A stretch of DNA of 64,000 nucleotides from Rhodospirillales bacterium (GCA_965247705.1 CBDFHV010000059.1:3879-67878), one strand, 5' to 3'. Counted from the stretch's first letter, positions 12,216-64,000 are shown. Notes: a model not told the origin generated them from the sequence alone. Program-made: numbers and translations.

Positions 12216-13106
12216 TCAAGGCCTCGGTAACGGGGGCGGCGACACGCTTCCTCGGTTCTGGAACCGGTGGCGGGCGATGACCTCGCCGATGCCGGGTACC
12301 GCGGCGCGGGCCACCGCGCTGGCGATGGGACCCCAGGCGCCTTCCAGGCTGCCGGCCGCGACCTGGTTGGCCTGGGAGGCACGGCCCACGCTGTTGCCGG
12401 CCGGGTCACGCACCTCCCACACGATGCTGACCCGCTGGCGCCCCTGGGATGGCGGGTCGACGACGATTGTTCCCGCCACCCGGTAGGGCGCGGTTCGGGG
12501 GTCATTGGACACGATCAGCCCGGCCGCGCGCAGGGCCTTGCCGAGAGCCGCGGCGAGGGCGCGATTGCCGTCGCCCGGCGCCCCCTGCGCCCCGACGACG
12601 TGCACATCGGGGGTGGCGGTCGCCGCGTCGTCGTCCGCCTCCGCGTCGCGAAGAAGCGCGGCCACGATCCGCGATCCTTCGCTGCCGACCCGGGACAGCA
12701 GCCGAGGGTCGCCGTAGTCCCATTGCCAGCGGGGGCCCAGGATGCCTTGGGTCTGGAAGCCGATGGGCGCGCGGTCTCCGTCGAGCAGGGTCCAGTGGAT
12801 CAGCATGATGTAGGGCAGGGACGGGTCGTCCCGATTCGGCTCGGCTCGGCCGGTCACCACGAATCGGGTCTGCGTGCCGCCGCCTACCGTCGCCTGGACG
12901 TTTTCCTTGGTGAGGGCACGGGCCAGGGACTCCGCGAGCAGTCGCGACAGGGGCTCGGCGGCGCCCGCTACGGGCTCGACCCGCACCTCGACGGGGTCTG
13001 TCGGCGTGGCCAGGGGCGGGGGAGCCCCTCGGAACGGTTTTGGCAGGGGCGCGCAGGCCGCGATCAGCGCGACAAGGGCCAGGGAAGGCGCCACCAAGCC
13101 TTTCAT
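12216..13106 (-). CDS. Conserved hypothetical lipoprotein (two similar alpha/beta domains)
   Basis: Lipobox LIAAC. Motifs GAQGAPGDGNRALAAAL, VSIVWEVRDPAG, GSLEGAWG. Confidence 0.75.
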   Translation of the reverse strand: MKGLVAPSLALVALIAACAPLPKPFRGAPPPLATPTDPVEVRVEPVAGAAEPLSRLLAESLARALTKENVQATVGGGTQTRFVVTGRAEPNRDDPSLPYIMLIHWTLLDGDRAPIGFQTQGILGPRWQWDYGDPRLLSRVGSEGSRIVAALLRDAEADDDAATATPDVHVVGAQGAPGDGNRALAAALGKALRAAGLIVSNDPRTAPYRVAGTIVVDPPSQGRQRVSIVWEVRDPAGNSVGRASQANQVAAGSLEGAWGPIASAVARAAVPGIGEVIARHRFQNRGSVSPPPLPRP

Positions 13107-30136: not shown

Positions 30137-30186
30137 GTTCGACCCTATTGTGCGGCTTCGACCGTTGAGCAGGGGGAAGGTAACTG

Positions 30187-30618
30187 ATGCGCGCGACTTA
30201 TGCCTATCCTGCGGATATTGAAACCGATGAAGACGGGGCGGTCATCGTCACCTTCCCCGATTTCGGCTGGGGGGTGACCGATGGCGACACCCTCGCCGAG
30301 GCCTTGGTCCAAGCCGAGGACTGCCTCGGCACCTTGATCGCCACCACAATGTGGGAACGGAGGGAACTGCCCATCCCATCGGCCGCCCAAGGCCGGCCGG
30401 TGGTGCCTGCCCCGCCCCTGATCGCGGCCAAGGCGGCGCTGTATCAGGCGATGCGGGACGAAGGCTTGACCAACGTCGCCCGGGCCGAACGCATGCACAC
30501 CTCTGAAACCGAGGTCTGCCGCTGGCTCAACCCCCGCCTTGCCACCAAGATCGCCGCCCTCGACGAGGCCCTGCGCGCCCTTGGACGGCGCCTGGAAGTG
30601 TCTGTCAGGGCAGCATGA
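30187..30618 (+). CDS. hicB: HicB-family antitoxin (orphan)
   Basis: YAYPADIETDEDGAVIVTFPDF, TDGDTLAEALVQAEDCL, ELPIPS, C-terminal HTH. Confidence 0.85.
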   Translation: MRATYAYPADIETDEDGAVIVTFPDFGWGVTDGDTLAEALVQAEDCLGTLIATTMWERRELPIPSAAQGRPVVPAPPLIAAKAALYQAMRDEGLTNVARAERMHTSETEVCRWLNPRLATKIAALDEALRALGRRLEVSVRAA

Positions 30619-34719: not shown

Positions 34720-34862
34720 GAAAAGACCTCCTGGCCGCACGGCCCGAAGGCCCGCGGAACGCCGAAAAATCTGTCCGCGACCCTATCGCCGGCTCCTGGA
34801 ACAAGTCAAACCGCCACACCAACGAAACCCTGGGTACGGCCGCAACATCCCTGCTACAACGG

Positions 34863-45003: not shown

Positions 45004-45062
45004 GCCGGCCATGTGTCGTCGCCCCCGGGCGAGACGTGAATAGCGCCAGGAAGGTGTGACCG

Positions 45063-47093
45063 ATGAAACTGGATCCTATTCTCCTCGAGATCCTGGCCAA
45101 CAAGTTCGTCGCCGCCACCGAGGAAATGGCGTCCGCCCTGCAGCGGACGGCGCGCACGCTGTTCGTCAAGGAGGCGGCCGACTATGCCTGTGCGCTTTTG
45201 AACCTGGACGGCCGGGTGATCGCCCATCCGCGGGCCATGGGCGTGACCATCCTGATCAACCTGGACGCCAGCGCCGCCATCCGCGCGGTGCCCGACCTGG
45301 AGCCGGGGGACGTCATCCTCACCAACGATCCCTATGCCACCGAGGGCATGGTCAGCCACACCCCCGACCTGACCCTCATCCAGCCCTATTTTCATGACGG
45401 CAAGATTGTCTGCTACGGCTGGTGCTTCATCCATTCCACCGACGTTGGCGGCTCGGTGCCGTCGAGCATCGCGCCGTCGTTGAACGAGATCTATCAGGAA
45501 GGCATCCGCATCCCGCCGGTGAAACTGATGCGCCGGGGCGAGATGAACCAGGACGTGGTCGGCCTGCTCAAGGCCAACTGCCGCATCCCCGAGGAAAACA
45601 TGGGCGACGTCCGCGCCATGCTGGCCGGGCTCCATACGGGCCAGAAGCGGACGGGGGACATCATCGCCCGCCACGGCCTCGAGACCTACTTGGCCTCCCA
45701 CGGGGCGCTGCTGGATTACTCGGAGGCCAAGGCGCGGGCGGTGCTCAAGCGCCTCAAAGACGGCACTTACGAGTTCTGGGACTACATGGACGACGACCTG
45801 GTCAGCCCCATCCCGGTGCGCCTGCGCATCCGCATGACCGTCGCCGACGGCGCCGTCCACGTGGACCTGACGGGGACCGACCCGGAGGTCGACGCGGCCT
45901 ACAACACCGCCACCTTCAGCCGCTTCCACGAGTGGTTCACCATGCGGTTCACCTCCTTCATGTGCACCCATGACAAGACCATCGTGCTCAATTCGGGCAT
46001 GTACCGCCCGATCACCGTGATCAATCCGGTGGGCACCGTGCTCAACGCCCAGTTCCCGGCCGCGGTAGGCCTGCGCTCCAACCCGGCGCGGCGTTTCAAC
46101 GACGCCATGACCGGGGTCCTGCTCAAGGCGGCGCCGGACCAGATGGCGGCGCCGACGCCGGGCACCGGCCTGATCTTCGTGCTCAGCGAATACGACGAGA
46201 CGGGAACGCGGAAGCTGGTCAACGTGCTCGAGCCCCTGGGCGGCGGCATGGGCGCCTATGCGGGCCACGACGGGGTCGATACCCGCGACACCACCATGTC
46301 CAACATGGCCAACCACTCGCTTGAATCCATCGAGGCCCAGTGCGGGGTGCTGGTGCGGGAATACGACGTGCGCCCCGATTCCGCCGGCGCCGGTCAGTGG
46401 CGGGGCGGTGTCGGCCAGACTTTCGAGGTGGAGATCCTGCGCGACGGCGGGGTCATCGTGCCCCGGGGCATGGAGCGCATGCGCTTCCCCGCCTGGGGGG
46501 TCATGGGCGGCCGGCCGGCGAAACCCTTCCGCATGCACCTCAACCGGGGCACCAAGGACGAATGGTTCATCCCCAAGATCGATCAGTTCCCGGTCAACCG
46601 GGGCGACGTGGTAACGGTGCTGATGCCCGGCGCGTCGGGCTACGGCGACCCCCATCTGCGCGACCCCGGGGCCGTGTGTCGCGACGTGATCGAGGGCTTC
46701 GTCAGCCGCGAGGCGGCGCGCGAAGACTACGGCGTGGTCCTGACCGCCGACGACCATGTCGACAAGGCGGCGACCGAAGCGCTGCGCAGCACCCGCACCC
46801 CGGACAACGCCCGCGCCGCCTTCGACTTCGGCCCCGAGCGGGAGGCCTGGGAAGCGGTGTTCGACGACGCCACCATGTGCGCCCTGAACGCCAAGCTGAT
46901 GACCCTGCCCCGCGCCACCCGCTACGCCAAGCGCCGGTGGATCTTCGAACAAGCCGTCCCCGACATGCCCAAGGCCGGCGAAACCCCCCTGGTCGAGATC
47001 CTGGCCGACCCCGACGCCGCCCGAGCCCGCCTCCACACCGCCATGGACGCGGTGTTCGGCTACCTCCGGACGCGGGACCAGGCGGCCCAGTGA
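45063..47093 (+). CDS. Hydantoinase B/oxoprolinase family protein (stand-alone B subunit), paralog 4
   Basis: LDPILLEI, VKEAADY, SHTPD, HSTDVGG, DSAGAGQWRGG, same C-terminal extension as paralogs 1-3. Confidence 0.93.
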   Translation: MKLDPILLEILANKFVAATEEMASALQRTARTLFVKEAADYACALLNLDGRVIAHPRAMGVTILINLDASAAIRAVPDLEPGDVILTNDPYATEGMVSHTPDLTLIQPYFHDGKIVCYGWCFIHSTDVGGSVPSSIAPSLNEIYQEGIRIPPVKLMRRGEMNQDVVGLLKANCRIPEENMGDVRAMLAGLHTGQKRTGDIIARHGLETYLASHGALLDYSEAKARAVLKRLKDGTYEFWDYMDDDLVSPIPVRLRIRMTVADGAVHVDLTGTDPEVDAAYNTATFSRFHEWFTMRFTSFMCTHDKTIVLNSGMYRPITVINPVGTVLNAQFPAAVGLRSNPARRFNDAMTGVLLKAAPDQMAAPTPGTGLIFVLSEYDETGTRKLVNVLEPLGGGMGAYAGHDGVDTRDTTMSNMANHSLESIEAQCGVLVREYDVRPDSAGAGQWRGGVGQTFEVEILRDGGVIVPRGMERMRFPAWGVMGGRPAKPFRMHLNRGTKDEWFIPKIDQFPVNRGDVVTVLMPGASGYGDPHLRDPGAVCRDVIEGFVSREAAREDYGVVLTADDHVDKAATEALRSTRTPDNARAAFDFGPEREAWEAVFDDATMCALNAKLMTLPRATRYAKRRWIFEQAVPDMPKAGETPLVEILADPDAARARLHTAMDAVFGYLRTRDQAAQ

Positions 47094-49657: not shown

Positions 49658-52600
49658 ATGTCCAACAGCCAGAATCCCTATCGGATCGGGTTCGATATCG
49701 GCGGCACTTTCACCGATTTCGTGCTCCTCGATTCCACGTCGGGGGCCATCCGCCTTCACAAGTGCCTGACCACCCCCGACGATCCGTCCCGGGGCGCCTT
49801 GGAGGGCCTGGGCGCCCTGTTGTCCGAAGCCGGCCTGACGTTCGCCGATATCGGCCATCTGGTGCACGGCACGACCCTGGTCGCCAACGCCATCATCGAG
49901 CGCCGGGGCGCCACCACGGGCCTGATCACCACCCGCGGTTTCCGCGACATCCTGGAGATGGGCACCGAGCAGCGCTACGACATCCACGACCTGTTCCTCC
50001 AGTTCCCCGAGCCTCTGGTCCCGCGAGCCCGCCGCCTGGAGGTGGACGAGCGCATGGACCGGGACGGCAACGTGGTGGTGCCCCTGGACCTCGATCAGGT
50101 GCGCCATCGGGCCGATCGCCTGGTGGCGGCGGGCGCCGAAGCCATCGCCGTCTGTTTCCTCAATGCCTACAAGAACCCGGATCACGAGCAGGTGGTTGGC
50201 GATCTCCTGCGCCGGACCTACCCCGATCTGGCGGTGTCGTTGTCGAGCGACGTCCAGCCGCAGATCCGCGAGTACGACCGCTTCTCCACCACGGTGGCCA
50301 ATGCCTACGCGCAGCCCCTGATGGGCCGATATGTGGAGCGCCTTGTCACCGCCTTCGCGGACCACGGGTTCGCCGGCCGGTTCCACCTGATGCAGTCCTC
50401 CGGCGGACTGGCGGCGCCCCAGACGGCGACGCGGTTCCCGGTGCGCTTCATCGAGTCCGGGCCCGCCGGCGGCGGCCAGGCCACCGCCTTCATCGGCGCC
50501 ATGGTGGGCAAGCCGGACGTGATCTCCTTCGACATGGGCGGCACCACGGCCAAGGCCTGCCTGATCGAGGACGGCACGGCGGCGGTGGCGCCGATGATGG
50601 AGGCGGCGCGGGTGCACCGCTTCAAGAAGGGAAGCGGCCTGCCGATCAAGGCGCCGGTGCTCGACATGATCGAAATCGGCGCCGGCGGCGGCTCCGTCGC
50701 CCGCATCGACACCCTGGGCCTGATCAAGGTGGGACCCGGCAGCGCCGGCGCCGACCCGGGGCCCGCCTGCTACGGCCAGGGTGGCACCGAGCCCACGGTG
50801 ACCGACGCCAACCTGATGCTGGGCTACTTGAACCCGGACTACTTCCTGGGCGGGCGGATGTCACTCGACGCGGACGCGGCGGAGGCCGCCATGGCGCGCC
50901 TTGCCCAACCCCTGTCCCTGAAGCCTATCGAGGCCGCCTGGGGCGTCTATGAGATCGTCTGCGAGAACATGGCCGGCGCCGCGAGGGTCCATATCGTCGA
51001 AAAGGGCCACGACCCGCGCCGCTATGCCATGGTCGCCATGGGCGGCGCCGGGCCGGCCCATGCCGCCCGGGTGGCCCGCAAGCTGGGCGTCGGCGAGGTG
51101 ATCGTGCCGCCGGCCTCGGGCGCCGCCTCGGCGCTGGGTTTCCTGGTCGCGCCGATCGGCTTCGAGCGCACCCGCTCCCTGCCGGGCCTGCTCGACAGCC
51201 TCGATTTCGGCGATGTGAACAGACTGCTCGGCGAGTTGGAAGAGGAGTGCCAGGCGCTGCTGAAGGAAGCCGGGAACCGGGACGGGGCGATCACCGTCAC
51301 CCGGGCCGCCGACATGCGGCTTTATGGGCAGATGCACGAGATCACCGTGACCCTGCCGGCCGCGCCCATCGGCCCCCACTCAATGGAGGCCATCGAAACC
51401 GCGTTCGAGGCGGAGTACACCCGGCGCTACAGCCATCTGTTTGAAGGCGCCCAAATCCAGGTCCTCAACTGGCGCGTCACTTGCGCCGGCACGACGCCGG
51501 AGGTGTCGGCGCACCTGACCGCCGGCGACGCCGCGGCGGCGGCCCAAAAGGGCACCCGGCCGGCCTACTTCCCCGAGGCCGGCGGCTTCGCGGACGCCCC
51601 GGTCTACGATCGCTATGCCTTGAAGCCGGGCCTGCGCATCGACGGTCCAGCCATTGTCGAGGAGCGGGAGTCCACCACCATCGTCCCGCCCGGCGATTGG
51701 GTCAGGGTCGACGACGACCTGAACCTGCGGCTGCATATCTCCCAGACCAGCCGCCTCGACGCCGTGGTGCCCCGGGGCCTTCCCCTGGACGACGCGGTCC
51801 GGCGTATCGAGAGCGACCCCATCGGCCTGGAAATCATGTGGAGCCGGCTGATCAACATCGCCGAGGAGTGCTGGCAGACGGTCATCCGCACGGCCTTCTC
51901 GACGATCATCGGCGAATCCCAGGACTTCGGCTGCGATCTGCTGGATGCCAAGGGCCGCCAGCTCGCCCATTCGCCGCGGGCCATGCCGGTGTTCAGCCTG
52001 ACCCTGCCCATTGCCGTCAACGCCATGATCACCAAGCATCCCCCCGAGTCCCTGAAGCCGGGCGACGTGCTGATCACCAACGATCCCTGGGTCTGCGCCG
52101 GCCACCTGTTCGACATCGCCATCGCGACGCCGGTGTTCCGGGATGGTCGTGTGGTGGCCTTCTCCGGCAACGTGGGCCATGTCACGGATATCGGCGGTTC
52201 CAAGGAGCGCCTGTTCTCGCGCGAGCTCTACGAGGAGGGACTGCAGATCCCGCCCATGAAGCTGTTCAAGGCAGGGGTTCTCAACCAGGACCTGGTGGAC
52301 ATCATCACCGAGAACGTGCGCAGCGCCGATCAGGTGCTGGGCGATATCCATGCCCTGGTGGCGGCCAACGCCTCGGGCGCCCGGCGCCTGGAAGCGTTCA
52401 TGGACGAATACGGGATGCACGACCTGGAGGCGCTGACCATCGTCGTCCAGAGCCGAGCCGAGAAGGCCATGCGCGACGCCATCTCGGAGCTGTCCGACGG
52501 CACCTACGAGGGCGCCATCCTGGCCCGGCCCCTGCGCGAGGTGGAGCGCTTCCCCATCAAGATCACTGTCGAGGGCGACACCATCGAGGTGGACTTCGAG

Positions 52601-53542
52601 GGCGCGCCGCCCCAGACCTGGGAAGGTACCGTCAACTGCACCCTCAACTACGTCCGCGCCCACAGCACCTATCCCCTCAAGTGCATGCTATCGCCGGAAA
52701 TTCCCGGCAATGCCGGGGCCTACCGGCCGTTCGTGGTCAAGGCCCCGCCCAAGAGCCGCTATAACTGCGATAAGCCGGTGGCGGTCAACATGCGCACCCG
52801 CAGCGGCTGGTACATCGCCCCCAACATCTTTTCCGCCATCGCCGGGGCGGCGCCGGACAAGGTGCAGGCGTTCACCGCCCTGCCCAGCACCGCCCGCTTC
52901 TACGGGGTCGGTCCCGACGGCGTCCCCTTCACCGACCACCTGTTCCAGGGCGGCGGCCAGGGCGGTTCGGCCCATGGGGACGGCAAATCGGGCATCCAGT
53001 TCCCCAACAGCGCCTCCAACACCTCGATCGAGATCTTCGAAAGCCGGGTGCCCATCCTGGTGCTGGAAAAGGCCTACATCGCCGATTCCGGCGGCGCGGG
53101 CCGCAATCGGGGCGGCCTGGGCCAGGCGGTGCGGACCCGCAAGCTGCTCGACGATGGCCGGCCGACCCAAGCCGGCCTCTATCCGAACAGCGTGGGGATT
53201 GCCACCGATGGCCTGTTCCGGGGCCAACCCGGGGGGCCCGGCGCGGCGATGATCACCGACCTCGACGGCAACGTGCTCAGCGATCTGGGCACCGGCGCCC
53301 TGGCCCCGCTCGCTTCGTCCCGGGAGGTGGCGGTCATCCACCTGGCCGGCGGCTCCGGCTTCGGCGATCCCTTGGAGCGTCCCATCGAGACCGTCCAGAG
53401 GGACCTGGACGAATACTATGTCACCCTCGAGGGGGCGCGCCGGGACTATGGCTGTGTGGTCGGCGCCGACGGGCGCATCGACGCGGCGGCGACCCGCCGG
53501 CTGCGCGAGAACCGGGAACGGACCCTCGAGCCGGCCGAGTGA
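49658..53542 (+). CDS. Fused hydantoinase A+B / ATP-dependent 5-oxoprolinase-like enzyme (1294 aa)
   Basis: IGFDIGGTFTD, HGTT, ESGPAGG, FDMGGTT, GPGSAGADPGPACYG; B half with DPIGLEI, NDPW, GHVTDIGG, DSGGAGRNRGG. Confidence 0.94.
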   Translation: MSNSQNPYRIGFDIGGTFTDFVLLDSTSGAIRLHKCLTTPDDPSRGALEGLGALLSEAGLTFADIGHLVHGTTLVANAIIERRGATTGLITTRGFRDILEMGTEQRYDIHDLFLQFPEPLVPRARRLEVDERMDRDGNVVVPLDLDQVRHRADRLVAAGAEAIAVCFLNAYKNPDHEQVVGDLLRRTYPDLAVSLSSDVQPQIREYDRFSTTVANAYAQPLMGRYVERLVTAFADHGFAGRFHLMQSSGGLAAPQTATRFPVRFIESGPAGGGQATAFIGAMVGKPDVISFDMGGTTAKACLIEDGTAAVAPMMEAARVHRFKKGSGLPIKAPVLDMIEIGAGGGSVARIDTLGLIKVGPGSAGADPGPACYGQGGTEPTVTDANLMLGYLNPDYFLGGRMSLDADAAEAAMARLAQPLSLKPIEAAWGVYEIVCENMAGAARVHIVEKGHDPRRYAMVAMGGAGPAHAARVARKLGVGEVIVPPASGAASALGFLVAPIGFERTRSLPGLLDSLDFGDVNRLLGELEEECQALLKEAGNRDGAITVTRAADMRLYGQMHEITVTLPAAPIGPHSMEAIETAFEAEYTRRYSHLFEGAQIQVLNWRVTCAGTTPEVSAHLTAGDAAAAAQKGTRPAYFPEAGGFADAPVYDRYALKPGLRIDGPAIVEERESTTIVPPGDWVRVDDDLNLRLHISQTSRLDAVVPRGLPLDDAVRRIESDPIGLEIMWSRLINIAEECWQTVIRTAFSTIIGESQDFGCDLLDAKGRQLAHSPRAMPVFSLTLPIAVNAMITKHPPESLKPGDVLITNDPWVCAGHLFDIAIATPVFRDGRVVAFSGNVGHVTDIGGSKERLFSRELYEEGLQIPPMKLFKAGVLNQDLVDIITENVRSADQVLGDIHALVAANASGARRLEAFMDEYGMHDLEALTIVVQSRAEKAMRDAISELSDGTYEGAILARPLREVERFPIKITVEGDTIEVDFEGAPPQTWEGTVNCTLNYVRAHSTYPLKCMLSPEIPGNAGAYRPFVVKAPPKSRYNCDKPVAVNMRTRSGWYIAPNIFSAIAGAAPDKVQAFTALPSTARFYGVGPDGVPFTDHLFQGGGQGGSAHGDGKSGIQFPNSASNTSIEIFESRVPILVLEKAYIADSGGAGRNRGGLGQAVRTRKLLDDGRPTQAGLYPNSVGIATDGLFRGQPGGPGAAMITDLDGNVLSDLGTGALAPLASSREVAVIHLAGGSGFGDPLERPIETVQRDLDEYYVTLEGARRDYGCVVGADGRIDAAATRRLRENRERTLEPAE

Positions 53543-54799: not shown

Positions 54800-56161
54800 T
54801 CAGCCGGCGCCCATGACGGCGGGTTCGCAGTACTGGCGCCGTCGCTTGAGCCGGTCGCACAGGTTCTTTGCCGACCGGGCGCCCTCGATTGGGCCGGCGA
54901 TAAGGCGGAAGTAGACACCTTTGCCGCGCCCCAGATCGATACGGCTGATCTGGTGCTCCAGGTTGCCGATGAGGGCCGAATGGGCCCGCCGGAACTGAGT
55001 CCAGCCCCGTTCCGCCGCCTGGCGGGAGCGGTAGGAGGCCAGATGGACGGCCGCTTGGGATCCCGAAGCCATGGTGGCCTTGCCTTCCGAGGACGCCTTC
55101 GGCGCCGCGGCGGCCCGCGCCCCTGGGGGCTGCATTCCCTTTTCGATCGCTTGGCGCTCGCGGGCATACTCGTCTGACGTGATCAGCCCGGAACCTTGAA
55201 GCTGCTCCAGGCGGCGCACCGAATCGGCGGCTTCCATCAAGCCCTTGGGCGGCTGGGCCGGCGGGGCCACGGCCACGGGCGCGGCGGGCATCAGGGCGTC
55301 AAGGATCATCGATCGCTCGGCCGAATGCTGGCTGATGGTGATCGCCCGCATCTCGAGCGCCCTGCCGATGGCCCTGAGGCGGCCAGTGATCTGCGCGGCA
55401 TTGGGAACCGGCCGATCGAGCCCGGCGGCGGGCGGCGGCGTGGTCAGGGGCACAAGCGCCCCCAGATTGGACTGTCGCCGGGTGCCGAACTCTTCCGGCG
55501 TGATGAGCCCTTGATCGCGCAAGGCGCGCAGGGTGTTGAAGCGGCTGACGATGGTCGCGTCGGCGTTGCCCAATTGGGGGACGCTGTTGGCGTTCTGCAT
55601 CGCCGGGCTCGCGGATCCGGTGGCGGCCCGGGGCGGCATCCGCCCCAGCATGGGACTGCTGGCCGGCTGGCCGGAAACCATGCCCATTGTGGGCGCATTG
55701 GGCGGCGGGTTGAACGGCATGGCACCGCTGGCGCCGGTGGCGGCGGACGTCGGCATGACGCCGCCGCCTTCGAGGAGCGCCAGGTTGACGCTGGCCAGCT
55801 CGGAGATGGGACGGTGGGACAATTCCCGGAGGACGAGCATCTGCTGGGTGTTGCTGGGGCGGATGGCCAGGACCGCCTCGTAGGATTGCCGCGCCTTGGT
55901 CAACTGGCCCGTGTTCTGGTAGAGGACACCGAGCCCCATGAGGGCCTGCACGTCCCGGTCGTCCCGGCTCAGCGCCTTGTTGAAATGGGCCTCGGCCATG
56001 CCGTAGTTGCCCTTGGTAAGCTCGGCCAAGCCCAGTTCGGCCTCGTCGTTGCCGACAAATATGGGGCTGCTTACCCAGAACGTGGGATCGGCGACGCCGC
56101 CGGCGCCGCAAGCACCGAGGAGGCCCATGAGGCAACAGGCCGTCGCCAGACGCAGGGCCAT
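54800..56161 (-). CDS. TPR + SHOCT-like + SPOR domain lipoprotein
   Basis: Lipobox LLGAC, TPR helices (AEAHFNKAL, ARQSYEAVL), two GLIT..E(F/Y) SHOCT-like motifs, C-terminal SPOR (VHLASYRS, YFRLIAGP, CDRLK..YC). Confidence 0.8.
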   Translation of the reverse strand: MALRLATACCLMGLLGACGAGGVADPTFWVSSPIFVGNDEAELGLAELTKGNYGMAEAHFNKALSRDDRDVQALMGLGVLYQNTGQLTKARQSYEAVLAIRPSNTQQMLVLRELSHRPISELASVNLALLEGGGVMPTSAATGASGAMPFNPPPNAPTMGMVSGQPASSPMLGRMPPRAATGSASPAMQNANSVPQLGNADATIVSRFNTLRALRDQGLITPEEFGTRRQSNLGALVPLTTPPPAAGLDRPVPNAAQITGRLRAIGRALEMRAITISQHSAERSMILDALMPAAPVAVAPPAQPPKGLMEAADSVRRLEQLQGSGLITSDEYARERQAIEKGMQPPGARAAAAPKASSEGKATMASGSQAAVHLASYRSRQAAERGWTQFRRAHSALIGNLEHQISRIDLGRGKGVYFRLIAGPIEGARSAKNLCDRLKRRRQYCEPAVMGAG

Positions 56162-56319
56162 CCGCGGGCAGGGATTTCGCCGGATCACGCCGTCCTCATC
56201 CTCCAACCATCGGCCCCAGACCGCCGGGTCCCTCCGGACCCACCGATTCCCGAAGCCGAATCCTAGACCAAGTACGCCGTCCCGGCTAACAATTCCTTAA
56301 GCGCGTCCCGTTCCCCCGG

Positions 56320-57288
56320 TTATTCGCCGCCGCCGAGACAGCCCGTGCCGGGTCCCTTCGTCCGCATCCTCAGGTAGTGAGTGGAAAAAATTCCGTGCTC
56401 GCCGAGCAGGCACGGAATGCCAGAAATAATGGGAAACACCAGTGCGTCGTCGTCGCTGTAGAGGGCTTCTCCGGTGTCGATGAGCGGGGTTTTGGCGAAC
56501 GGCGAGGCGTAGGGTGGGTCGGGGAACGGGGTGTCCGGGTCCGTGCTCAGGTCTTGGGGCCGCTTCGCGACGATGGTCAGGGCGGAGCGGTTGCGGGTGT
56601 TGACGTCGCCTTCGAACGGGCCGTGTTCGACCACGTCGTAGCCCAAGTCCTTCAAGGCGCCGGGAATATCCTTGATGTAGCGGTGGTGTTCGATCTGGGC
56701 CCGGGTCGCGTCGTCGCCGAACTGCCAGGACGGTTCGCGCAGCACCAGATAGCGCCGCGAGACCCGATAGAGTTCGGCCAGGATTTCCCGCTCCTTGTCC
56801 CGGTTGGGCTCGATGGCGTGGTTGGTGAACACGACGTCGAAGGCATCGGTGAGAATGGGGACGGCGAACAGGGAGCCTTGGAACAGCTTCAGGTCCGGCT
56901 GGCCATGGTCCCGCGCCCAGGCCTGCCCGTAGAGCAAACGGGACAGGACGATGTCGAAGCCGTAGCGGTGCCGGGGTGGCCGCTCCATGGCGTTGAGGAC
57001 GTTGCAGGCCAGGGTGGCTTCGCCAATGCCGGCGTCGAGGAGGGAATCCGGCCCAAGCCGGTCGAACATCTGAGCCAGTTTGCCGGCCGAGATTCGGTGC
57101 TGCTCGGCGACGAAGGCCTCCTTGGTGGTGCGCTGGATGTAGGAGCCCGCCTGCAGATCGTAGGACAGCATGATCGATAGCTCGTCGTTGCCGTCCAGGC
57201 CGCGGCTGTCGCGTACATGGGCAAGGATGTTGCGCCGTTCCGCATACAGCTTGCGCAGTTCCTCCGGGTCCAGGGTATAGCGGCTCAA
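56320..57288 (-). CDS. Class I SAM-dependent methyltransferase with C-terminal Trm112-like domain
   Basis: SYDLQAGSY, LLDAGIGEAT, FDVVFTNHAIEPN, ELYRV, C-terminal SPFAKTPL...FPIISGIPCLL. Confidence 0.8.
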   Translation of the reverse strand: MSRYTLDPEELRKLYAERRNILAHVRDSRGLDGNDELSIMLSYDLQAGSYIQRTTKEAFVAEQHRISAGKLAQMFDRLGPDSLLDAGIGEATLACNVLNAMERPPRHRYGFDIVLSRLLYGQAWARDHGQPDLKLFQGSLFAVPILTDAFDVVFTNHAIEPNRDKEREILAELYRVSRRYLVLREPSWQFGDDATRAQIEHHRYIKDIPGALKDLGYDVVEHGPFEGDVNTRNRSALTIVAKRPQDLSTDPDTPFPDPPYASPFAKTPLIDTGEALYSDDDALVFPIISGIPCLLGEHGIFSTHYLRMRTKGPGTGCLGGGE

Positions 57289-57306
57289 ATGTCTGCTCCC
57301 TCAGGA

Positions 57307-57357
57307 TTCTGCGGGGTTCATGAACATGGTGTCGAACGGGGCCATTACCCGGTTGAC
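57307..57357 (-). repeat. Remnant copy of a GSCFA gene 3' end (direct repeat of 58196-58246)
   Basis: 43/51 nt identical by hand alignment. Encodes VNRVMAPFDTMFMNPAES versus VGRVMALFDAMFVDPAET. Confidence 0.8.
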
Positions 57358-58145
57358 GATTTCGGCCCGCCGGCCAAACGGAAGATGACCATGATGTTGC
57401 CCACCCTGTCCGTCATGGACGGGTGGATGTCGTGGCGGAACAGCACCTCTCGGGGCACGCCGTCGAACAGCATCAGGATGTCGTCGGCGCTCTCGAACCG
57501 GGTGCCGTCCAGCTTGATCGTCTTGACCCTGTTCAGTTCCTCGTTGCTCCAAGGGCTGTAGTAGCAGCCGATGGCCACGTAGGCGCCGGGCGCCGCCACG
57601 CGCAGGATCTCCCCGGCGACTCGGGGGTTGTCGCTGCTGTAGCCGAGGACGCCGCTGAGGATGACGACGTCGAAGCTTGCGTCCGGGTAGGGCATGTCGT
57701 GCATGTCCCCCAGGTCCACCAGGGCCGAATAGGAGATCAGGTCCAGTCCCCAGATATTGCGCGGCTCGAACCCCAGGGCCATGAGCGCGAAGAGTTCCGC
57801 CTCGGTGCGGGGGCCGACGGTCAGCACCCGCATGGTCTTGTGGTTCTTCACGATGTGATCGATGCTGCGCAAGGGGCCGATAAGACGGCTTGGCCGGTCC
57901 AGGGTCACCGTGTCGGAAAGATTGTTCAGGTTGTGGGCAAGGGCGTTTTTGATCACTCCCGGCCCCATCGCCTCCACAGTCTGGACGTCCTCCTCTCGAA
58001 GCCGCTTTAGGCGGACGGCGGACAGGAGGGCGCGGACATGGGGGATATGGAGCAACTGCGCCGGGTACTTGGACAGGAAGGCATTGATCATCCCCAGGTC
58101 GTCGGGCGTCAGTTCCAAGGAAAATCCCCGCTCGCCAGTGGTCAT
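57345..58145 (-). CDS. Methyltransferase type 11-like protein
   Basis: VLTVGPRTEAE, GLDL, GDMHDMPYPDASFDVV, EILRVAAPG. ATGA overlap with the upstream GSCFA gene. Confidence 0.78.
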   Translation of the reverse strand: MTTGERGFSLELTPDDLGMINAFLSKYPAQLLHIPHVRALLSAVRLKRLREEDVQTVEAMGPGVIKNALAHNLNNLSDTVTLDRPSRLIGPLRSIDHIVKNHKTMRVLTVGPRTEAELFALMALGFEPRNIWGLDLISYSALVDLGDMHDMPYPDASFDVVILSGVLGYSSDNPRVAGEILRVAAPGAYVAIGCYYSPWSNEELNRVKTIKLDGTRFESADDILMLFDGVPREVLFRHDIHPSMTDRVGNIMVIFRLAGGPKSSTG

Positions 58146-59494
58146 GAACGCAACTCCGATTCCTTCACAAGATGTGGTTCGTCGTCGAGGGGTGTTTCTG
58201 CGGGGTCCACGAACATGGCGTCGAATAGGGCCATCACCCGGCCGACCGCGTGGGCCGAAACATGGCGCTGATCGGCCTCCCAGGCGTCCCGGGTGCAGGT
58301 CGTCACCAGTTCGTAGCTGGGGAAGTAGTGGACATCGGGCACGGTGTCGACCAGGGACTCGGCGGCCGTGCGCAGCACCGCCTTCGAATGGGCGTTGGCG
58401 CTGATCACATGGTGTTCGCGGGCCCGGGTGGTGGCCATCAGGGGCACCGGCGAAACGCTGAGAATGACCGTGAAGTCGGGGTTGTGGGCGCGGACGATCT
58501 CGACGAACCGGCGGATGTTGGCGACGTTCTCGGCAACCGTCAGGACCCGGGGCCGGATGAACGGCAGCAGGGCGCCGCCCCGCGGGTTGCGGGACAGGAC
58601 GCTGCCGTCGGGGACGTACTCCCAGCATTCATTGAGGCCGAGGGTCAGGACGAACACGCGGCAGGCCTGCAAGGCCTCACGGCAGGAGGCCAGGTGCTGC
58701 TCGTAATCGGCGGCGTAGGCTTCGGGCGACACGAAGCCGACGCCCTCTCGGAACGGGTCGCAGTAGACACACGGATGCGGGGGGCCGCGATGGAGGGGCA
58801 CCAGGAGGCGGGGCGTGGCCCGCTCGCCGAAGGCGCGCTCGGCCAGTTGGCGGAAGCTGGGGGTGTTGAACAAAGGGCCCCAATTGGCGCAATAGCGGGC
58901 GTCGACGCGGGCCGCGTCGTAGTCGCTCATGATCACCCCCCGGGCGATCCCTTCGCTTTCTTCCTCGCGCCTCACGTAGGCGAATCCCCGCCGCTGCAGG
59001 GCGACGGCGATTTCCGTGGCGAAACAGCTTCCCGCCGAGCCGACAGGGGTTCGCCGGTTGACGAGCGCCTTGTTCTGTACGACCGGTAAGGTCGCGTAGA
59101 GATCGTGGGCCGGGTTTCGTCGCGGGTTCGGCCAGAACACCGCGTCCGGGTTGGGCTTGGAGGCCGGGTTGTAGGTGTCGGCGTTGGCCGTCAGTTGGGT
59201 CCGGAATCCGGCCAGCTCTCTCAGCAGATGGGCCGGATCCAGTCGGAGGGCCGCCGGGTCGCGGCCGAGATCGCGCAACGTCTCGCCAATGGCGGCGATC
59301 AGGGTGCCGTGGGGATCGCCACCGTCCAGGCGGTCGCGCAGACGTGCCTTGACCGCCATTCGGCTCGCCGGGTCGGCGAAGATGGCGTCGACGATCAGGA
59401 AGGCGAGCGGCGGCTCGATGGCGCCTTGTCGCCGGCCGATGACGAAGGTTGGAGGTGCGGCCTCCGTTGGGATACTGCGGACGGTCGGGCTCAT
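58142..59494 (-). CDS. GSCFA domain-containing protein (SGNH hydrolase-like), copy 1
   Basis: GSAGSCFA, TLGLNECW, LSVSPVPL, ANAHSKAVLR, YFPSYE, DQRHVS. Confidence 0.9.
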   Translation of the reverse strand: MSPTVRSIPTEAAPPTFVIGRRQGAIEPPLAFLIVDAIFADPASRMAVKARLRDRLDGGDPHGTLIAAIGETLRDLGRDPAALRLDPAHLLRELAGFRTQLTANADTYNPASKPNPDAVFWPNPRRNPAHDLYATLPVVQNKALVNRRTPVGSAGSCFATEIAVALQRRGFAYVRREEESEGIARGVIMSDYDAARVDARYCANWGPLFNTPSFRQLAERAFGERATPRLLVPLHRGPPHPCVYCDPFREGVGFVSPEAYAADYEQHLASCREALQACRVFVLTLGLNECWEYVPDGSVLSRNPRGGALLPFIRPRVLTVAENVANIRRFVEIVRAHNPDFTVILSVSPVPLMATTRAREHHVISANAHSKAVLRTAAESLVDTVPDVHYFPSYELVTTCTRDAWEADQRHVSAHAVGRVMALFDAMFVDPAETPLDDEPHLVKESELRS

Positions 59495-60612
59495 GGCGGG
59501 CTGACGAACAGGCGGTTTACGTAGTCCCGGGGTGGCGCCAGCAGGCGCGGCGACAGGTGGTGGAGAAATCCCTGTCCCAAGGTCGCCGGAAACAGGGTCA
59601 CCTGACGGCGCGGCGGCTGCATGTACGGAGAAACCCCATAGACCACCTGGCACACCAGGCGATCCCGCGACACCGGCGCCAGCCCCTTGTGAATGCCCCG
59701 CGTGTTGACCAGCAGACGGCTGCCCTCGGGGCCGCAAAACAGGGTCGGCGATCCTTCCAGACGGACGCGGGTCTCGTCGTCGGTCTTGCGCAATTGGTGG
59801 AAGAACCACTTGTGAAATTCCAGCCGACCGCCCGGCCAGCGCTCCCTGAGCGCGGCCACGTGACGCGGGTCGTGGGTGCGCGGATAGAAGGCGTGCGGGC
59901 CGCCGTCCTCGTCCACGTCGGTCAGATACACGAACAGTTTGCAGAACTGGTAGTCGGCCAGGTCGCGATGGAAAAGCTGTTCGTCGCACGCCACCCCCCA
60001 GCCGGCGAAGGACCACCATGCGGACATTCCCAGGATGGTGGGCGTCGCGCCCAGGTGATGGGCGACGAGGGCGAGGGTCGCGGGATCGTTGGCGATATTC
60101 AGCAGATGGGGGCAGCCGACGACCGTCGAGGTGAGGAAGTGGGCCCGGTGGTACTGGCGTGCATCGGCCAGCGAACAGGTCTCGAATTCCTGGTCGTCGA
60201 GAACCACGGAGCCTTCGAAGTGGCTGGCCATGTCGTCGGCGGTTGCTTGCGTCAGTGGCGGCAGACGAACAAAGCCTTCCCTGTCCATATCCGCCGTCAA
60301 GCCCGAAACGTCCGCATCGGTCGTCGGCGAACGGATCCCCATATCCTCGCGTACCAGACCGTCGACGGCGGACACGACCAGCGCTAGCAACTCGGCGCTC
60401 AGACTCTCAGCCACCCGGCTCATGGCCAATATCTGGCCGTTCCACATGTAACCGAAGTCGGTGAGCCGCCTTGGGTCCAGGTCCAAGATGGCGCGCAGCG
60501 GCGCCAATTCCCTTTGGGTCAGCACCCGCCGCTGAAGACCCAGGTACCAGGACAGGATGGCGTCCCGATTGGGGACGTTGTCGTAAAGATTTGCGTCGAC
60601 GGCGGCAGTCAC
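59491..60612 (-). CDS. Phytanoyl-CoA dioxygenase (PhyH)-like Fe(II)/2-oxoglutarate oxygenase
   Basis: QLFHRD (HxD), KLFVYLTDVDEDGGPH, TRGIHKG (distal His), RDRL. Confidence 0.87.
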   Translation of the reverse strand: MTAAVDANLYDNVPNRDAILSWYLGLQRRVLTQRELAPLRAILDLDPRRLTDFGYMWNGQILAMSRVAESLSAELLALVVSAVDGLVREDMGIRSPTTDADVSGLTADMDREGFVRLPPLTQATADDMASHFEGSVVLDDQEFETCSLADARQYHRAHFLTSTVVGCPHLLNIANDPATLALVAHHLGATPTILGMSAWWSFAGWGVACDEQLFHRDLADYQFCKLFVYLTDVDEDGGPHAFYPRTHDPRHVAALRERWPGGRLEFHKWFFHQLRKTDDETRVRLEGSPTLFCGPEGSRLLVNTRGIHKGLAPVSRDRLVCQVVYGVSPYMQPPRRQVTLFPATLGQGFLHHLSPRLLAPPRDYVNRLFVSPP

Positions 60613-61904
60613 GAAGTCTCTCCCTGCACGAACATGGCATCGAACAGGGCCATGACCCGTCTGACGGCATCCCGGGACACATGGCGCTGGTCGCTATCCC
60701 ACGGCTCGGACGTGCACTCGGTCACCGTCTCATAGCTGGGGAAATAGTGTACGTCTCGATTGGATCGCACCACCTCCTCCGCCGCCACCCGCAGAACCGC
60801 CTTGGAGTGGGCGTTGGCGGTGACGACGTGATGGCTGTCGGCCCGGGTGGTGACCAGGAACGGCACGGGAGAGACGCTGACGATGACGGTGAAATCCCGG
60901 TTGTGGCCGCGAACCACGTCGATGAAGCGCTGGACCGCGGCGACGTTCTCCTCGACCGTCAGAACCCGGGGGCGCACCAGGGACAGGAAGTCCCTGTCCA
61001 GTGGGTTCCGCGACAATACGCTGCCGTCGGGGATGAACTCCCAACACTCGTTCAGTCCCAGGGTGATGACGAACACCCGGCTGCGAAGAAGCGCCTCGCG
61101 GACCGCGTTCGTGTGCCTGTCGTAGTTGGCCTCGTAGGCTTCCGGCGAGGCGAAATAGACGCCCTCCCGATAGGGGTCGGCGTAGAGGGTGCGGCCGTCA
61201 GGACCGGGAACCGCGATCAGCAGGCGGGGCAGGGCGCGCTCGCCGAAAGCCTTTTCGGCCAAGTGGGCGAAGCTTGGGGTGTTGAAAAGCAGCCCCCAGT
61301 TGGCGGGAAAGCGGGCGTAGGGGTTGTCGGCGTCATAGTCGCCCATCATCACCCCGGTGGGGATGTCGTCCTCCTTTTCCGTCACCACGTAGTTGAACCC
61401 GCGCCGCTGCAGGGCGTAGGCGATTTCCATGGCGAAGCAGCTTCCAGCCGAGCCGATGGGAGTCTCCGGTCCCACCAGTCCCAGATTCTCGACTACGGGT
61501 AGGATGTCGAACAGGCCCTTGCCGCCGCGTTTCGGATTGGGCCAGAAGACGGCCTCGGGATTGGGCTTGCCGGTGGGGCGATAGGTCTCGGCGCTTTCCA
61601 CAAGGCGGCGGCGCAAGTGATGGAGCGCCCGCCGGCGACCCGGCGGATCGAAGCGCAGGTTCTCCGGCAGCCGGCCAAGGCGGTCGAGGATCGCGTCAAG
61701 CCGATCGAATAGATGGGCGTAAGACGGAACCCCCTGTCCGCCGGCGGAAATCTCGTCGCGCAGCCGCGTCATCAGGGCGGGCTCGCCTAAAGCATTAAGG
61801 ACTTCGTTGACCGTATCGTCGGTCAGGGCACCGTCCATGTGGCCCAACAGCCGGACCTCAGCGTCGTCGTCGCGGCGATGGGGTGCGTCGTCCATTCTTG
61901 CCAT
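60609..61904 (-). CDS. GSCFA domain-containing protein (SGNH hydrolase-like), copy 2
   Basis: GSAGSCFA, TLGLNECW, VSVSPVPF, ANAHSKAVLR, YFPSYE, DQRHVS. Confidence 0.9.
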   Translation of the reverse strand: MARMDDAPHRRDDDAEVRLLGHMDGALTDDTVNEVLNALGEPALMTRLRDEISAGGQGVPSYAHLFDRLDAILDRLGRLPENLRFDPPGRRRALHHLRRRLVESAETYRPTGKPNPEAVFWPNPKRGGKGLFDILPVVENLGLVGPETPIGSAGSCFAMEIAYALQRRGFNYVVTEKEDDIPTGVMMGDYDADNPYARFPANWGLLFNTPSFAHLAEKAFGERALPRLLIAVPGPDGRTLYADPYREGVYFASPEAYEANYDRHTNAVREALLRSRVFVITLGLNECWEFIPDGSVLSRNPLDRDFLSLVRPRVLTVEENVAAVQRFIDVVRGHNRDFTVIVSVSPVPFLVTTRADSHHVVTANAHSKAVLRVAAEEVVRSNRDVHYFPSYETVTECTSEPWDSDQRHVSRDAVRRVMALFDAMFVQGETS

Positions 61905-61906
61905 CC

Positions 61907-63042
61907 TCACGCCGCCGAAAGGAACAGACGATTGACGTAAGCCGAGGCCCGATCGGCGACGAAGCGGGATGTCTCCCCCTCCAGGGGCGGCTCGCCCGCC
62001 GGCAGGGGAAACACGCATCCGCGGGCGAGCCGGACTTGATTGATCGGCGTGATGCCATAGAGCACCTGGCAGATCAGCCGATCCCGCTTTCGCGGCAGCA
62101 GGCCCTTGTGAATGCCTCGGGTGTTGGCGATGAATCGGCTGCCCGCCGGTCCCGTAAAATAGACCGGGTCAGCCCCCAGATAGCGGCGGGTATCCTCGTC
62201 GGTCTTGCGCAGGGTCAGGAAGTACCACTGGTTGAAGGCGTCCGCGCCCTCCGGCCAAGAGTCCCGCAACCGGCCCACATGGTTCGGGTCGTGGGTCCCG
62301 GCCATGAAGGCGTGGGGCCCGGAATCCGCGTCCACGTCCGTCAACTGAATGAACAGTTTGCAGAAGTAGTAATCGGCATTGTCCAGGTGGAAGAGCTATG
62401 CGTCCCTGGGATCGGCGGGGACCGGCGAAGGACCACCAGCAACTGAACCCGAGGATCATGGGCGCGGCCCCCAGGTGGCGCGCCACCGCGCCGAGGGTCG
62501 CCGGATCATTGGCGATCTCCAGCAGATGGGGGCAGGAGACCACCGTCTCGGTGGGAAAGTTGGCGATGTTGGAATCCCGGGACTCGGCTACCGTGCACAG
62601 GTTCCCCTCGCCCGTATACATACCGCGGCAGGACCTGCTTGTCGGCGAAGTAGTCCTTCATCTCGGCGATGACGTCCGCCTCGACCGGAGGCCGGTGCAG
62701 GTAACCGACCCGGTCGAAATCGTTCTTGGCGCAATCCATGCCCAAAACCGGCGGAACGCCCAGCACCTCGCGGGCGTAGGCGTCGACCGCCGTCCGAAAG
62801 GCATTCAACAGCGCCGGGTCCAGGCTGTGATGGATATGGCACATGACGGCGTAGTGGAGCTGCCGCATGCGATCCACGTTGGCGAGTTCGGCCGGATCGG
62901 TGCGGTAGAGTGGGCGCAAGGGCGCCCAACGGTCGTCGCTCAGGATGAAGCGATGAAAGCCCAAATACCACAGCAGCATGTATTCGGCATTCTCCAGGGG
63001 AGCCTGCCAGGGCGCCCGTTGCGCCGTCGCGGCGGCCGTTAT
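61907..63042 (-). pseudogene. PhyH-like Fe/2OG dioxygenase pseudogene, paralog of 59491-60612
   Basis: Homology is spread over three frames. Start decayed to ATA at 63042, frameshifts near 62620 and 62418, in-frame TAG at 62396-62398 (DA*LFHLD where the paralog has DEQLFHRD). Confidence 0.85.
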
Positions 63043-63806
63043 GGCGCGCCTCCGGCCAGCGCCGTGGCCGGGCGATCGCCCGCCTCGCCCGCCGCCAGAA
63101 ATCCGCGACCCGCGAGCAGCGCCAGGGAGGCCAGATCCACACGGCCGGCATTCCGGCGGACGAACAGGGCGATGTCTCCGGGGGCGATGACGACCAGGTC
63201 GTCGTATTCCCGGTTGGCGCGGCGGTTGAAGCACGCGCGCAGCTCGGCTTCCGGACAGGTGAAGTGGGCCGCGATGGCCACCTCCGTGACCCGTGTCTGG
63301 CCGTTGGTCCAAAGTCCAAAGGGCATCGGATCGACCACCCGGTCGCGGGGAACGTTGAGTTCCTCTTCCACTTCCAGCAGCAACTGTCCCACGTAATCCA
63401 CCCCGCCGTCAGCCTGGAGGCAACCCCGTTCCACCGATCCCGAGGGCACCAGTTCCCACAACCCTCGATCGGAGCCCACGACCGCGCTTCGCTGGCCCAG
63501 GACCAGGTTCCCATCGACGGTGATCAAACCGCTTACCGCCAGGGGCCGAAGGTTCAGGAGGTTGGCCAGGTCCGGCTCCCTGCGTTGGGCGACGAACCGG
63601 CGATAGGGGGTGAATCGGCCCTCTAGCACGCCGTCCCCCCAGCGCTCGACGCTAAAGATCCGCCCGTCGTAAAGAATGCCGTCGGATTGGCGCAGTGCCT
63701 GGTCCCAGATCCCATCGACCTGCCGCGACAAATCGGGCGGCAGGGCGGGCGGATCGCCCAGGGAGCGAACCCGCAGGTCTGGGCCGATGGAGCGCCAGGC
63801 CGCCAT
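63039..63806 (-). CDS. NUDIX-like hydrolase
   Basis: LYDGRIF, PLAVSG, LVLGQRS, WELVPSGSVE, degenerate Nudix box QLLLEVEEELNV. Confidence 0.7.
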   Translation of the reverse strand: MAAWRSIGPDLRVRSLGDPPALPPDLSRQVDGIWDQALRQSDGILYDGRIFSVERWGDGVLEGRFTPYRRFVAQRREPDLANLLNLRPLAVSGLITVDGNLVLGQRSAVVGSDRGLWELVPSGSVERGCLQADGGVDYVGQLLLEVEEELNVPRDRVVDPMPFGLWTNGQTRVTEVAIAAHFTCPEAELRACFNRRANREYDDLVVIAPGDIALFVRRNAGRVDLASLALLAGRGFLAAGEAGDRPATALAGGAP

Positions 63807-63807
63807 T

Positions 63808-64000
63808 TCAGAGCACCTCCGCCACGTCGTCCAGTCCCGCCACGGGCCGGGCCTGGGGCGGGAAAGCGCCACTGTCGTAAAGCGGCGAGGCGACCGCATA
63901 GGTGACGAGCCCCGCGGCCAGGGCGGAGGCCACGCCGGCCGGGGAATCCTCCACCGCCAGCGATACCGCTGCTCCACAGTCGAGATGTCGCAGGGCGCAC
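63808..64000 (-). CDS. HAD-family phosphatase, C-terminal part (5' end outside window)
   Basis: Manual translation ...AVSLAVEDSPAGVASALAAGL... shows HAD motif IV; stop TGA at 63808-63810, 1 nt before the NUDIX ATG. Confidence 0.8.
   Translation of the reverse strand, partial: CALRHLDCGAAVSLAVEDSPAGVASALAAGLVTYAVASPLYDSGAFPPQARPVAGLDDVAEVL

Follow-up and report, generated by a model that had tools for sequence, protein, structure and literature searches.

GSCFA (PF08885) is a protein family that a 2022 review, in the part available to us, lists without known activity or structure (PMC9487903). The closest described system with such a protein is the pseudotetraivprolide pathway of Pseudomonas entomophila, where, in the sections of the report open to us, the dioxygenase PipE sets the hydroxyl of a proline ring and a pipD, pipF or pipG deletion leaves a product that is not O-acetylated (PMC12828459). 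Here we describe an operon at the end of a 64,000-nucleotide (nt) stretch of Rhodospirillales bacterium DNA (GCA_965247705.1 CBDFHV010000059.1:3879-67878; "the window", which is 3879-67878 of contig C59 of genome G000, a contig that continues 4.6 kb past the window end). Two GSCFA genes in this operon each follow a gene for a PhyH-like dioxygenase. These genes are best read as the distal part of an operon that serves a nonulosonic acid (NulO) of the pseudaminic/legionaminic type, a class of sugar transferred to flagellin by Maf enzymes.

The likeness to the pip genes lies in the pairing of a 2-oxoglutarate (2OG) dioxygenase that makes a hydroxyl with a GSCFA protein, PipG, that serves its O-acetylation in the cytoplasm; as far as the accessible text goes, the substrate there is a peptide proline in a nonribosomal peptide synthetase/polyketide synthase (NRPS/PKS) cluster, whereas the context here is one of NulO and flagellin (PMC12828459). 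In the accessible part of the work on a related cluster the dioxygenase is called TauD-type, while the partner here is PhyH-like and is sometimes fused to GSCFA; in addition, the GSCFA proteins here carry an N-terminal extension of 150 amino acids (aa). An earlier note on this DNA, made from its sequence, had taken GSCFA to be a family of no known function. That statement is outdated, since PipG was reported in 2025 to be genetically required for O-acetylation, according to the same partial source (PMC12828459).

Flagellin glycosylation islands with Maf genes, as found in Campylobacter, Aeromonas, Shewanella and others, offer the second comparison. In the portions of this literature that we had, they resemble the present genes and their relatives in combining Maf, PseB/PseC/NeuB/CMP-synthetase, methyltransferase and tailoring genes with flagellin, and a word search of two papers on such islands, without supplements, found no mention of a dioxygenase or of a GSCFA/SGNH gene. 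Among papers naming GSCFA none dealt with NulO or flagellin, and searches for phytanoyl-CoA dioxygenase with flagellin glycosylation and for Nudix with Pse returned no report. Among the papers that combine dioxygenase or hydroxylation with Pse/Leg, the one read names a dioxygenase solely in its reference list (PMC6120980). In the main texts searched, supplements being outside the search, SGNH was not mentioned in the Maf, flagellin and nonulosonic acid literature, nor PhyH in the NulO literature.

Known carbohydrate enzymes of the SGNH type are mostly extracytoplasmic. In contrast, the GSCFA proteins described here have a dioxygenase partner and, in our reading of their sequences, no signal peptide. 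They keep the Ser block, the Gly, the Asn block and the DxxH of SGNH O-acetyltransferases and esterases, as set out in the accessible part of the review (PMC9487903).

Results

Layout of the operon

The genes of the operon are listed below in the direction of transcription, which runs from GNAT–NeuB through HAD, NUDIX-like, PhyH-like 1, GSCFA1, PhyH-like 2, GSCFA2 and MT1 to MT2.

64457-66028 (window-equivalent, outside the window), upstream of HAD on the same strand: GNAT–NeuB–SAF fusion gene, 523 aa
63808..64000, minus strand: HAD-type phosphatase, 3' part (HAD_2, E 1.5e-27); the gene runs to about window-equivalent 64467-64596
63039..63806, minus strand: NUDIX-like protein of 255 aa, distantly related within the superfamily
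61907..62979 (about), minus strand: first copy of the PhyH-like dioxygenase (copy 1), disrupted in this assembly and read in three frames
60609..61904, minus strand: GSCFA1, 431 aa (PF08885, 139 bits), an SGNH-type domain with an N-terminal extension of ~150 aa
59491..60612, minus strand: PhyH-like copy 2, putative Fe(II)/2OG dioxygenase, 373 aa, GTG start, with an N-terminal WYLG domain of ~150 aa
58142..59494, minus strand: GSCFA2, 450 aa (PF08885, 147 bits)
57345..58145, minus strand: MT1, class I S-adenosylmethionine (SAM) methyltransferase, 266 aa (Methyltransf_11, 35.8 bits)
57307..57352, minus strand: 46-nt copy of the GSCFA2 3' end, 87% identical, overlapping the MT1 end and the spacer before MT2
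56320..57288, minus strand: MT2, class I SAM methyltransferase, 322 aa, TTG start (Methyltransf_25, 28.2 bits), with a weak Trm112p-like tail

The earlier note had described eight co-oriented and tightly joined genes, and all eight exist on the minus strand. GSCFA1 and PhyH-like 2 overlap by GTGA, and PhyH-like 2 with GSCFA2 and GSCFA2 with MT1 by ATGA; HAD and the NUDIX-like gene are 1 nt apart and PhyH-like copy 1 and GSCFA1 2 nt apart. Two junctions are wider: about 59 nt separate the NUDIX-like gene from the first ATG of PhyH-like copy 1, and 56 nt separate MT1 from MT2. Promoter and terminator scans found sites no more numerous than in shuffles, and the public runs listed as containing this DNA include no RNA run.

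As to the gene labels, Pfam backs those of the two GSCFA proteins (cut-off 25), HAD_2 and both methyltransferases (cut-offs 21.2 for MT1 and 27 for MT2). The PhyH, NUDIX and Trm112 labels fall under their Pfam cut-offs and stand on relatives and motifs; for Trm112p (PF03966), the last 79 residues of MT2 score 14.8 bits (E 0.028, cut-off 22).

Pairing and fusion of dioxygenase and GSCFA

The earlier note had proposed that adjacency of GSCFA and PhyH genes across genomes would tell whether the two belong together. We found this adjacency conserved, and in some lineages the two proteins are fused. We compared the 24 closest PhyH-like loci of the species genomes (L005-L027 and L035). Nine of them have GSCFA in the same frame or no more than 500 bp away, 10 have a gene of the MT1 family at most 1.4 kb from the PhyH-like gene, and 15 have at least one of the two; 3 of the 9 loci with neither have less than 800 bp of flank on one side. 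In three Bacteriovoracaceae genomes (GC 44-47%) one frame of 785-800 aa encodes a PhyH-like domain followed by the entire GSCFA protein including its extension, and in the fusion P0143 Pfam finds PhyH, at 33.5 bits, together with GSCFA.

GSCFA2 has 551 relatives at E <= 0.001. Among the best 120 of these, 15 are fusions of 704-788 aa, 3 of them of the PhyH type and 12 with another N-terminal domain (fusions of ~705 aa). This other domain is unrelated to the PhyH-like 2 alignment (A1) by hhalign, matches 2OG-FeII_Oxy_3 at 26.5 bits in P0192, and has an invariant WHxD and a nearly invariant H229 and R240, in a WHxD...H...R pattern. A homologue of this oxygenase-like domain (E 1e-24) is also encoded in the source genome, near the start of another contig (G000:C70:1264-1779).

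An even, order-level sample of 301 genomes was searched with thresholds of E < 1e-100 for full-length PhyH-like proteins and E < 1e-60 for this GSCFA type. PhyH-like proteins were present in 8 genomes, the GSCFA type in 10 and both in 5. The two genes are adjacent in all 5, the pair in G012 being split over two contig ends, and more distant PhyH-like/GSCFA pairs are adjacent in G132 and G292. A scan of metagenomes that used P0192 alone gave no relative; the fusion alignment A3 then gave 78 loci with this GSCFA type, in counts that lean towards fusions. Of these, 34 encode a dioxygenase-like part in frame with GSCFA, and 61 have one fused or within 1.5 kb. For loci of at least 8 kb the latter figure is 43 of 49.

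Alignment of A1 with single hypothetical neighbors of GSCFA genes in L088, L089 and L092 by hhalign was weak (E 0.0007-0.03) with HxD and H aligned, and by Pfam the neighbor in L092 reaches 25.6 bits for PhyH and that in L089 matches 2OG-FeII_Oxy_3 at E 0.003. The adjacency spans several phyla and a GC range of 33-70%. Among the carriers in the loci and protein lists are the cultured strains Aestuariispira insulae CECT 8488, Hwanghaeella grinnelliae Gri0909 and Litorilituus sediminis. Judged from the close loci, the fusions, the adjacency in the 301-genome sample and the metagenome loci, the pairing of PhyH-like and GSCFA genes goes beyond chance.

Conserved residues of the two proteins

An alignment of 30 N-extended GSCFA relatives shows which residues are held constant. 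The Ser and Cys of GSAGSCF, G206, G286/N288/E289 (GLNE), D408/R410/H411 (DQRH) and W121/P122/P124 (FWPNP) are invariant, and GSCFA1 and GSCFA2 keep every one of them. SGNH blocks I, II, III and V are thus represented by S156, G206, N288, D408 and H411. The motifs GSAGSCF, GLNE, DQRH and KPNP.AVFWPNP, of which the earlier note had pointed out all but GLNE, are present in the two window proteins and invariant or nearly so across these relatives.

PhyH-like 2 has 92 relatives at E <= 0.001. About 30 are full-length (360-383 aa) and come mostly from Rhodospirillales metagenome-assembled genomes, and the distant ones are shorter and match PF05721. In the alignment of 30, H215, D217, H308, R318 and W22 are invariant. 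Read against the PhyH pattern (HxD...H...R), H215/D217/H308 correspond to the 2-His-1-carboxylate iron triad and R318 to the 2OG-binding Arg. W22 lies in the WYLG motif, so that the N-terminal WYLG extension noticed before in the two window copies extends to the relatives.

This pattern is the likeness to the PhyH family, whose Pfam cut-off (PF05721) is exceeded by a third copy in this genome (C45:6140-7219, 31 bits), by the P0143 fusion and by L018 (28.1 bits). The difference is the extra N-terminal WYxG domain of ~150 aa, together with the window's PhyH-like 2 remaining under the cut-off. By language-model features the nearest clusters of PhyH-like 2 are PhyH. Searches of solved structures by sequence, with PhyH-like 2 (A1) and GSCFA2 (A2), gave no significant match.

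Sugar genes upstream and elsewhere in the genome

The earlier note placed the genes in surface-glycan decoration, for which a nonulosonic acid gene was sought beyond position 64,000. Such a gene was found directly upstream of HAD: the PseH/PseI-like GNAT–NeuB–SAF synthase with which the operon opens matches NeuB at 241.9 bits, Acetyltransf_1 at E 2.3e-15 and SAF at E 1.4e-08. With the equivalog models it reaches 229 bits against PseI (cut-off 340) and 245 bits against NeuB, both under the cut-offs, and the match to the PseH model is weak at 18 bits. Further upstream there is a Pro/Ala-rich open reading frame (ORF) on the opposite strand and then, where the contig ends, a gene for an IS630-like transposase.

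Other NulO genes are spread over the genome, which is 89% complete. PseB and PseC score over the curated NCBIfam cut-offs and CTP_transf_3 genes are present, while the best PseG match reaches 22.8 bits against a cut-off of 153.55. Contig C45 has PseC and a CMP-sugar synthetase gene, and contig C86 has PseB, a Leg-type set (LegB/C/G-like, NeuB, PtmE-like, CTP_transf_3) and a further PhyH gene.

The family of the NUDIX-like protein comprises 1151 representatives. The Nudix box of the window protein, in our reading, is degenerate (LLEVEEELN), and a NUDIX cluster is among the nearest to the protein by language-model features. Of 31 unfused members, 11 match PF00293 at E <= 0.01 and 3 exceed the cut-off. 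The forms of 446-489 aa are HAD_2 fusions in all 6 examined, one form of 1008 aa adds CTP_transf_3, Glyco_tran_28_C and GNAT, and one of 745 aa adds Glyco_tran_28_C and GNAT (the fusion forms are P0246, P0263, P0295, P0302, P0309, P0347, P0284 and P0357). From these fusions, with HAD_2 and with PseF-, PseG- and PseH-like domains, HAD and the NUDIX-like protein make up a coupled unit that accompanies Pse genes, and the unit looks like a conserved accessory of pseudaminic acid pathways. We also considered that the NUDIX-like protein and HAD replace the missing PseG, an idea weakened by the existence of NUDIX-like fusions to the PseG-like Glyco_tran_28_C domain.

Neighborhoods of the relatives

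Maf proteins are glycosyltransferases that put NulO on flagellin. This genome has Maf matches on C45 (two) and C85, and the third PhyH-like copy on C45 sits between a methyltransferase gene and the two Maf genes. The arrangement is repeated in L015, where the PhyH-like gene again adjoins Maf. Besides the C45 paralogue (beside Maf) and L015, placement in a Maf or flagellar island was found for the relatives in L088, L129, L132 and L139. In L088 the order is GFO/CTP_transf_3/AsnB/NeuB, two hypothetical genes, GSCFA, GSCFA, FlbT and flagellin, and in L139 it is flagellins, a TPR-GT41 protein, DegT, CTP_transf_3, NeuB, FlaF, an oxygenase-like gene, GSCFA, Maf and FlbT. In marine contigs of low GC, the fusions of ~705 aa occur among PseB/PseC, NeuB, CTP_transf_3, LegB/LegG and Maf. 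The order in L129 is flagellin, fusion, fusion, flagellin, FlaG, Maf, FliS, FliD, NeuB, and in L132 it is four flagellins, FliD, FliS, Maf, fusion, GNAT, HisF/H, NeuB. Other relatives are found with sugar genes: L012 has DegT, CTP_transf_3, three PhyH-like genes, GSCFA, MT1 and HisF/HisH, and in L093 PhyH-like and GSCFA genes are joined to a Leg cluster. Of 18 loci with shorter PhyH-like relatives, mostly from Bacteroidota, 14 have a NeuB gene no more than 7 kb away.

Counts over larger sets point in the same direction. Using single-sequence queries, we found a NulO, Maf or flagellin gene in 24 of the 49 metagenome loci of at least 8 kb. Of the 10 sample genomes that encode this GSCFA type, 9 have Maf, versus 123 of 301 overall, and Maf is present in all five genomes that hold L011, L013, L014, L016 and L019 versus none of 14 control genomes. 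The surface-glycan context proposed in the earlier note is thus borne out, in that a NulO synthase gene heads the operon and relatives of the module lie near Maf, PseB/C and flagellin genes.

Two further observations concern these neighborhoods. The methyltransferase/PhyH-like/Maf cluster adjoins type III polyketide synthase-like and YdbH-like genes, both in the source genome (L084, which is G000:C45:1-16000) and in L015, whose genome (G051) is of the same family as the source. In L132 a DUF4910/DUF2172/M28-like gene (11731-13101) adjoins the oxygenase–GSCFA fusion of the flagellar island; the Campylobacter flagellin-glycan modifier Cj1295 is, we assume, of this kind of family.

History of the locus

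The earlier note had seen a duplicated two-gene unit, and this duplication is an old one. The two GSCFA proteins share 56% identity, and in trees the first GSCFA (a) of L005/G026 is grouped with GSCFA1 (support 91/87) and the second (b) with GSCFA2 (support 99/97). Since each window protein has its own orthologue in L005, a relative of the same family as the source, the duplication predates the split of these genera. In L005 (1565-5038, which equals G026:C129), one PhyH-like gene is followed by two GSCFA units in a single stop-free frame of 858 aa, which looks like a GSCFA–GSCFA tandem protein. The C-terminal part of copy 1 is 61% identical to the L005 dioxygenase and 53% identical to copy 2. 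An orthologue of MT2 is found at the equivalent place in L005, which still has the GSCFA–MT2 junction, and the 46-nt copy of the GSCFA2 3' end at 57307-57352 is therefore probably the scar of an insertion of MT1 into an older junction of that kind.

PhyH-like copy 1, which the note had called a pseudogene, is indeed disrupted. It is in frame up to '...KQVLPR', is shifted by an extra base near 62630 and, directly following 'WWSFAG', by a second one near 62417, and carries a TAG (plus-strand A at 62398) in place of a Gln that is invariant among relatives. In Logan contigs from two other studies (X1 and X2, >=99% alike), position 62398 is G, which turns TAG into CAG, and one base fewer is present at both 62417 and 62630. 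All three lesions are absent there, so the gene is whole in these contigs. A third set, X6, equals the window over 61900-62419, TAG and additional base at 62417 included, with no cover of 62630; its contigs break at 62419 and 62632, and X7 likewise breaks near these places. The window may have been assembled from the sample behind X6. The depth of the X contigs at copy 1 is 2-5 only. With X1 and X2 intact and X6 carrying lesions, the broken allele seems real, recent and polymorphic, which suggests that the decoration is switched or lost between close strains. The X1 and X2 contigs also break at 62059-62067 and 62355-62370, with the same unrelated ends of 19-28 nt on both sides, which may be a library or assembly artefact.

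Other genes of the window

A TPR–SHOCT–SPOR lipoprotein-like gene (54800-56206, minus strand) lies 113 nt downstream of MT2, and we saw no link between it and the operon. Farther away, the region 28082-53542 holds four Hydantoinase_B/oxoprolinase paralogues (28082-30241, 30659-32719, 32692-34782 and 45060-47093) that sit among TctABC transporter genes and two SBP_bac_5 genes, and an ORF of 1294 aa at 49658-53542.

Discussion

The combination found here extends two known kinds of system, the tailoring of flagellin glycans and the dioxygenase with its GSCFA partner, and the interpretation given in the earlier note is partly supported, namely in its genomic context and in the coupling of the proteins. 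We think it somewhat likelier than its rivals taken together that the genes encode a cytoplasmic unit for hydroxylation, then O-acylation or de-esterification, then methylation of a pseudaminic/legionaminic-type flagellar sugar, a reading reached by analogy. In such a unit the dioxygenase would hydroxylate an unactivated carbon of the sugar or of its N-acyl group in the cytoplasm. GSCFA, in physical contact with the dioxygenase, would then cap the new hydroxyl by acyl transfer through its putative Ser-His-Asp site, or alternatively remove an ester, and the methyltransferases would then add methyl groups. We infer the chemical steps, their order, the acyl donor and the choice of a sugar rather than a protein as the substrate; the order of hydroxylation, capping and methylation is drawn from the analogy with PipG and from the fusions.

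Several observations weigh against this reading. The contig ends 4.6 kb upstream at the transposase gene. The flagellin match of this genome is on C80, so the operon is not beside flagellar genes, and no Maf or flagellin gene was seen next to the module in the part of the window scanned (28-56 kb) or in the rest of the contig. A Maf match is absent from 3 of the 8 genomes with a full-length PhyH-like protein (G026, G020 and G045), and in L007, L011, L014, L018, L024 and L091 the pair, the fusion or a PhyH-like gene with MT1 sits among unrelated housekeeping genes. Two of the labels on which the reading leans score low: PhyH-like 2 reaches 15.7 bits against PF05721 (E 0.019, cut-off 22) and the NUDIX-like protein 12.6 bits against PF00293 (E 0.14, cut-off 21.1). 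To the lean of the metagenome counts must be added that the genomes and loci compared include kin and are not independent. Finally, in the text available to us PipG does not suffice for its reaction, as it requires the SGNH-like PipF and PipD (PMC12828459).

There are four other ways to read the same genes. The pair could modify the flagellin polypeptide itself, hydroxylating a side chain (e.g. Pro, Lys or Asn) whose hydroxyl is then O-acylated, with the methyltransferases also acting on protein. The 2OG-FeII_Oxy_3 family is rich in protein hydroxylases, and the second class of fusions carries a domain like it (26.5 bits in P0192); two fusions stand between two flagellin genes in L129, modules far from sugar genes fit a substrate made elsewhere, and the sole studied GSCFA protein, as far as the accessible source goes, acts on a peptide hydroxyproline. 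However, the operon opens with a NulO synthase, HAD and the NUDIX-like protein travel with Pse genes, and the shorter PhyH-like relatives lie beside NeuB in Bacteroidota, which mostly lack flagella, so we regard a polypeptide substrate as unlikely, if still the strongest of these alternatives. The NeuB clusters of Bacteroidota, and of Bradyrhizobium, that hold dioxygenase relatives fit a second alternative, decoration of a NulO of the capsule or lipopolysaccharide instead of flagellin. That proposal gains from the lack of any flagellar gene in the window part scanned and in the rest of the contig, and from the C86 NulO cluster, which is beside sulfotransferase and ABC-transporter genes. It is harder to square with the way the GSCFA subfamily tracks Maf across the sample genomes and lies inside flagellar clusters in several lineages, or with the C45 PhyH-like paralogue that abuts Maf genes, and we hold it to be a good deal less probable again than a polypeptide substrate.

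Tailoring of a secondary-metabolite peptide would make the module resemble the detoxin/rimosamide-like clusters, in which, by the partial sources at hand, GSCFA and a dioxygenase co-occur. The dioxygenase there is TauD-type in those sources, however, the context here is NulO and flagellin, and neither the operon nor its flanks hold an NRPS or PKS gene; we consider this very improbable. The adjacency might, lastly, be inherited gene order without shared function, as tight packing is common in GC-rich operons. Independent fusions of GSCFA with two unrelated oxygenase-like domains, and adjacency in several phyla over a GC range of 33-70%, make this explanation the hardest of all to credit.

A broader proposal can be put forward tentatively, and we think it more doubtful than the reading of this operon: the N-extended GSCFA proteins may be dedicated partners of 2OG oxygenases, so that C-hydroxylation followed by O-acylation would act on flagellin-bound NulO or on flagellin side chains. 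This would, if true, amount to an undescribed flagellar decoration across Alpha- and Gammaproteobacteria and Bdellovibrionota, and a large part of PF08885 would for the first time have a role in a pathway.

GSCFA is a large family whose sole prior functional clue came from one peptide pathway. One of its subfamilies, well delimited and beside or fused to a 2OG oxygenase, is now placed in flagellin glycosylation islands, which gives a testable job to two families annotated 'hypothetical', and the natural fusions are ready-made constructs for biochemistry. Our reading predicts extra mass on the flagellar sugars or flagellin of marine and soil bacteria, and flagellar decorations shape motility, phage recognition and immune detection.

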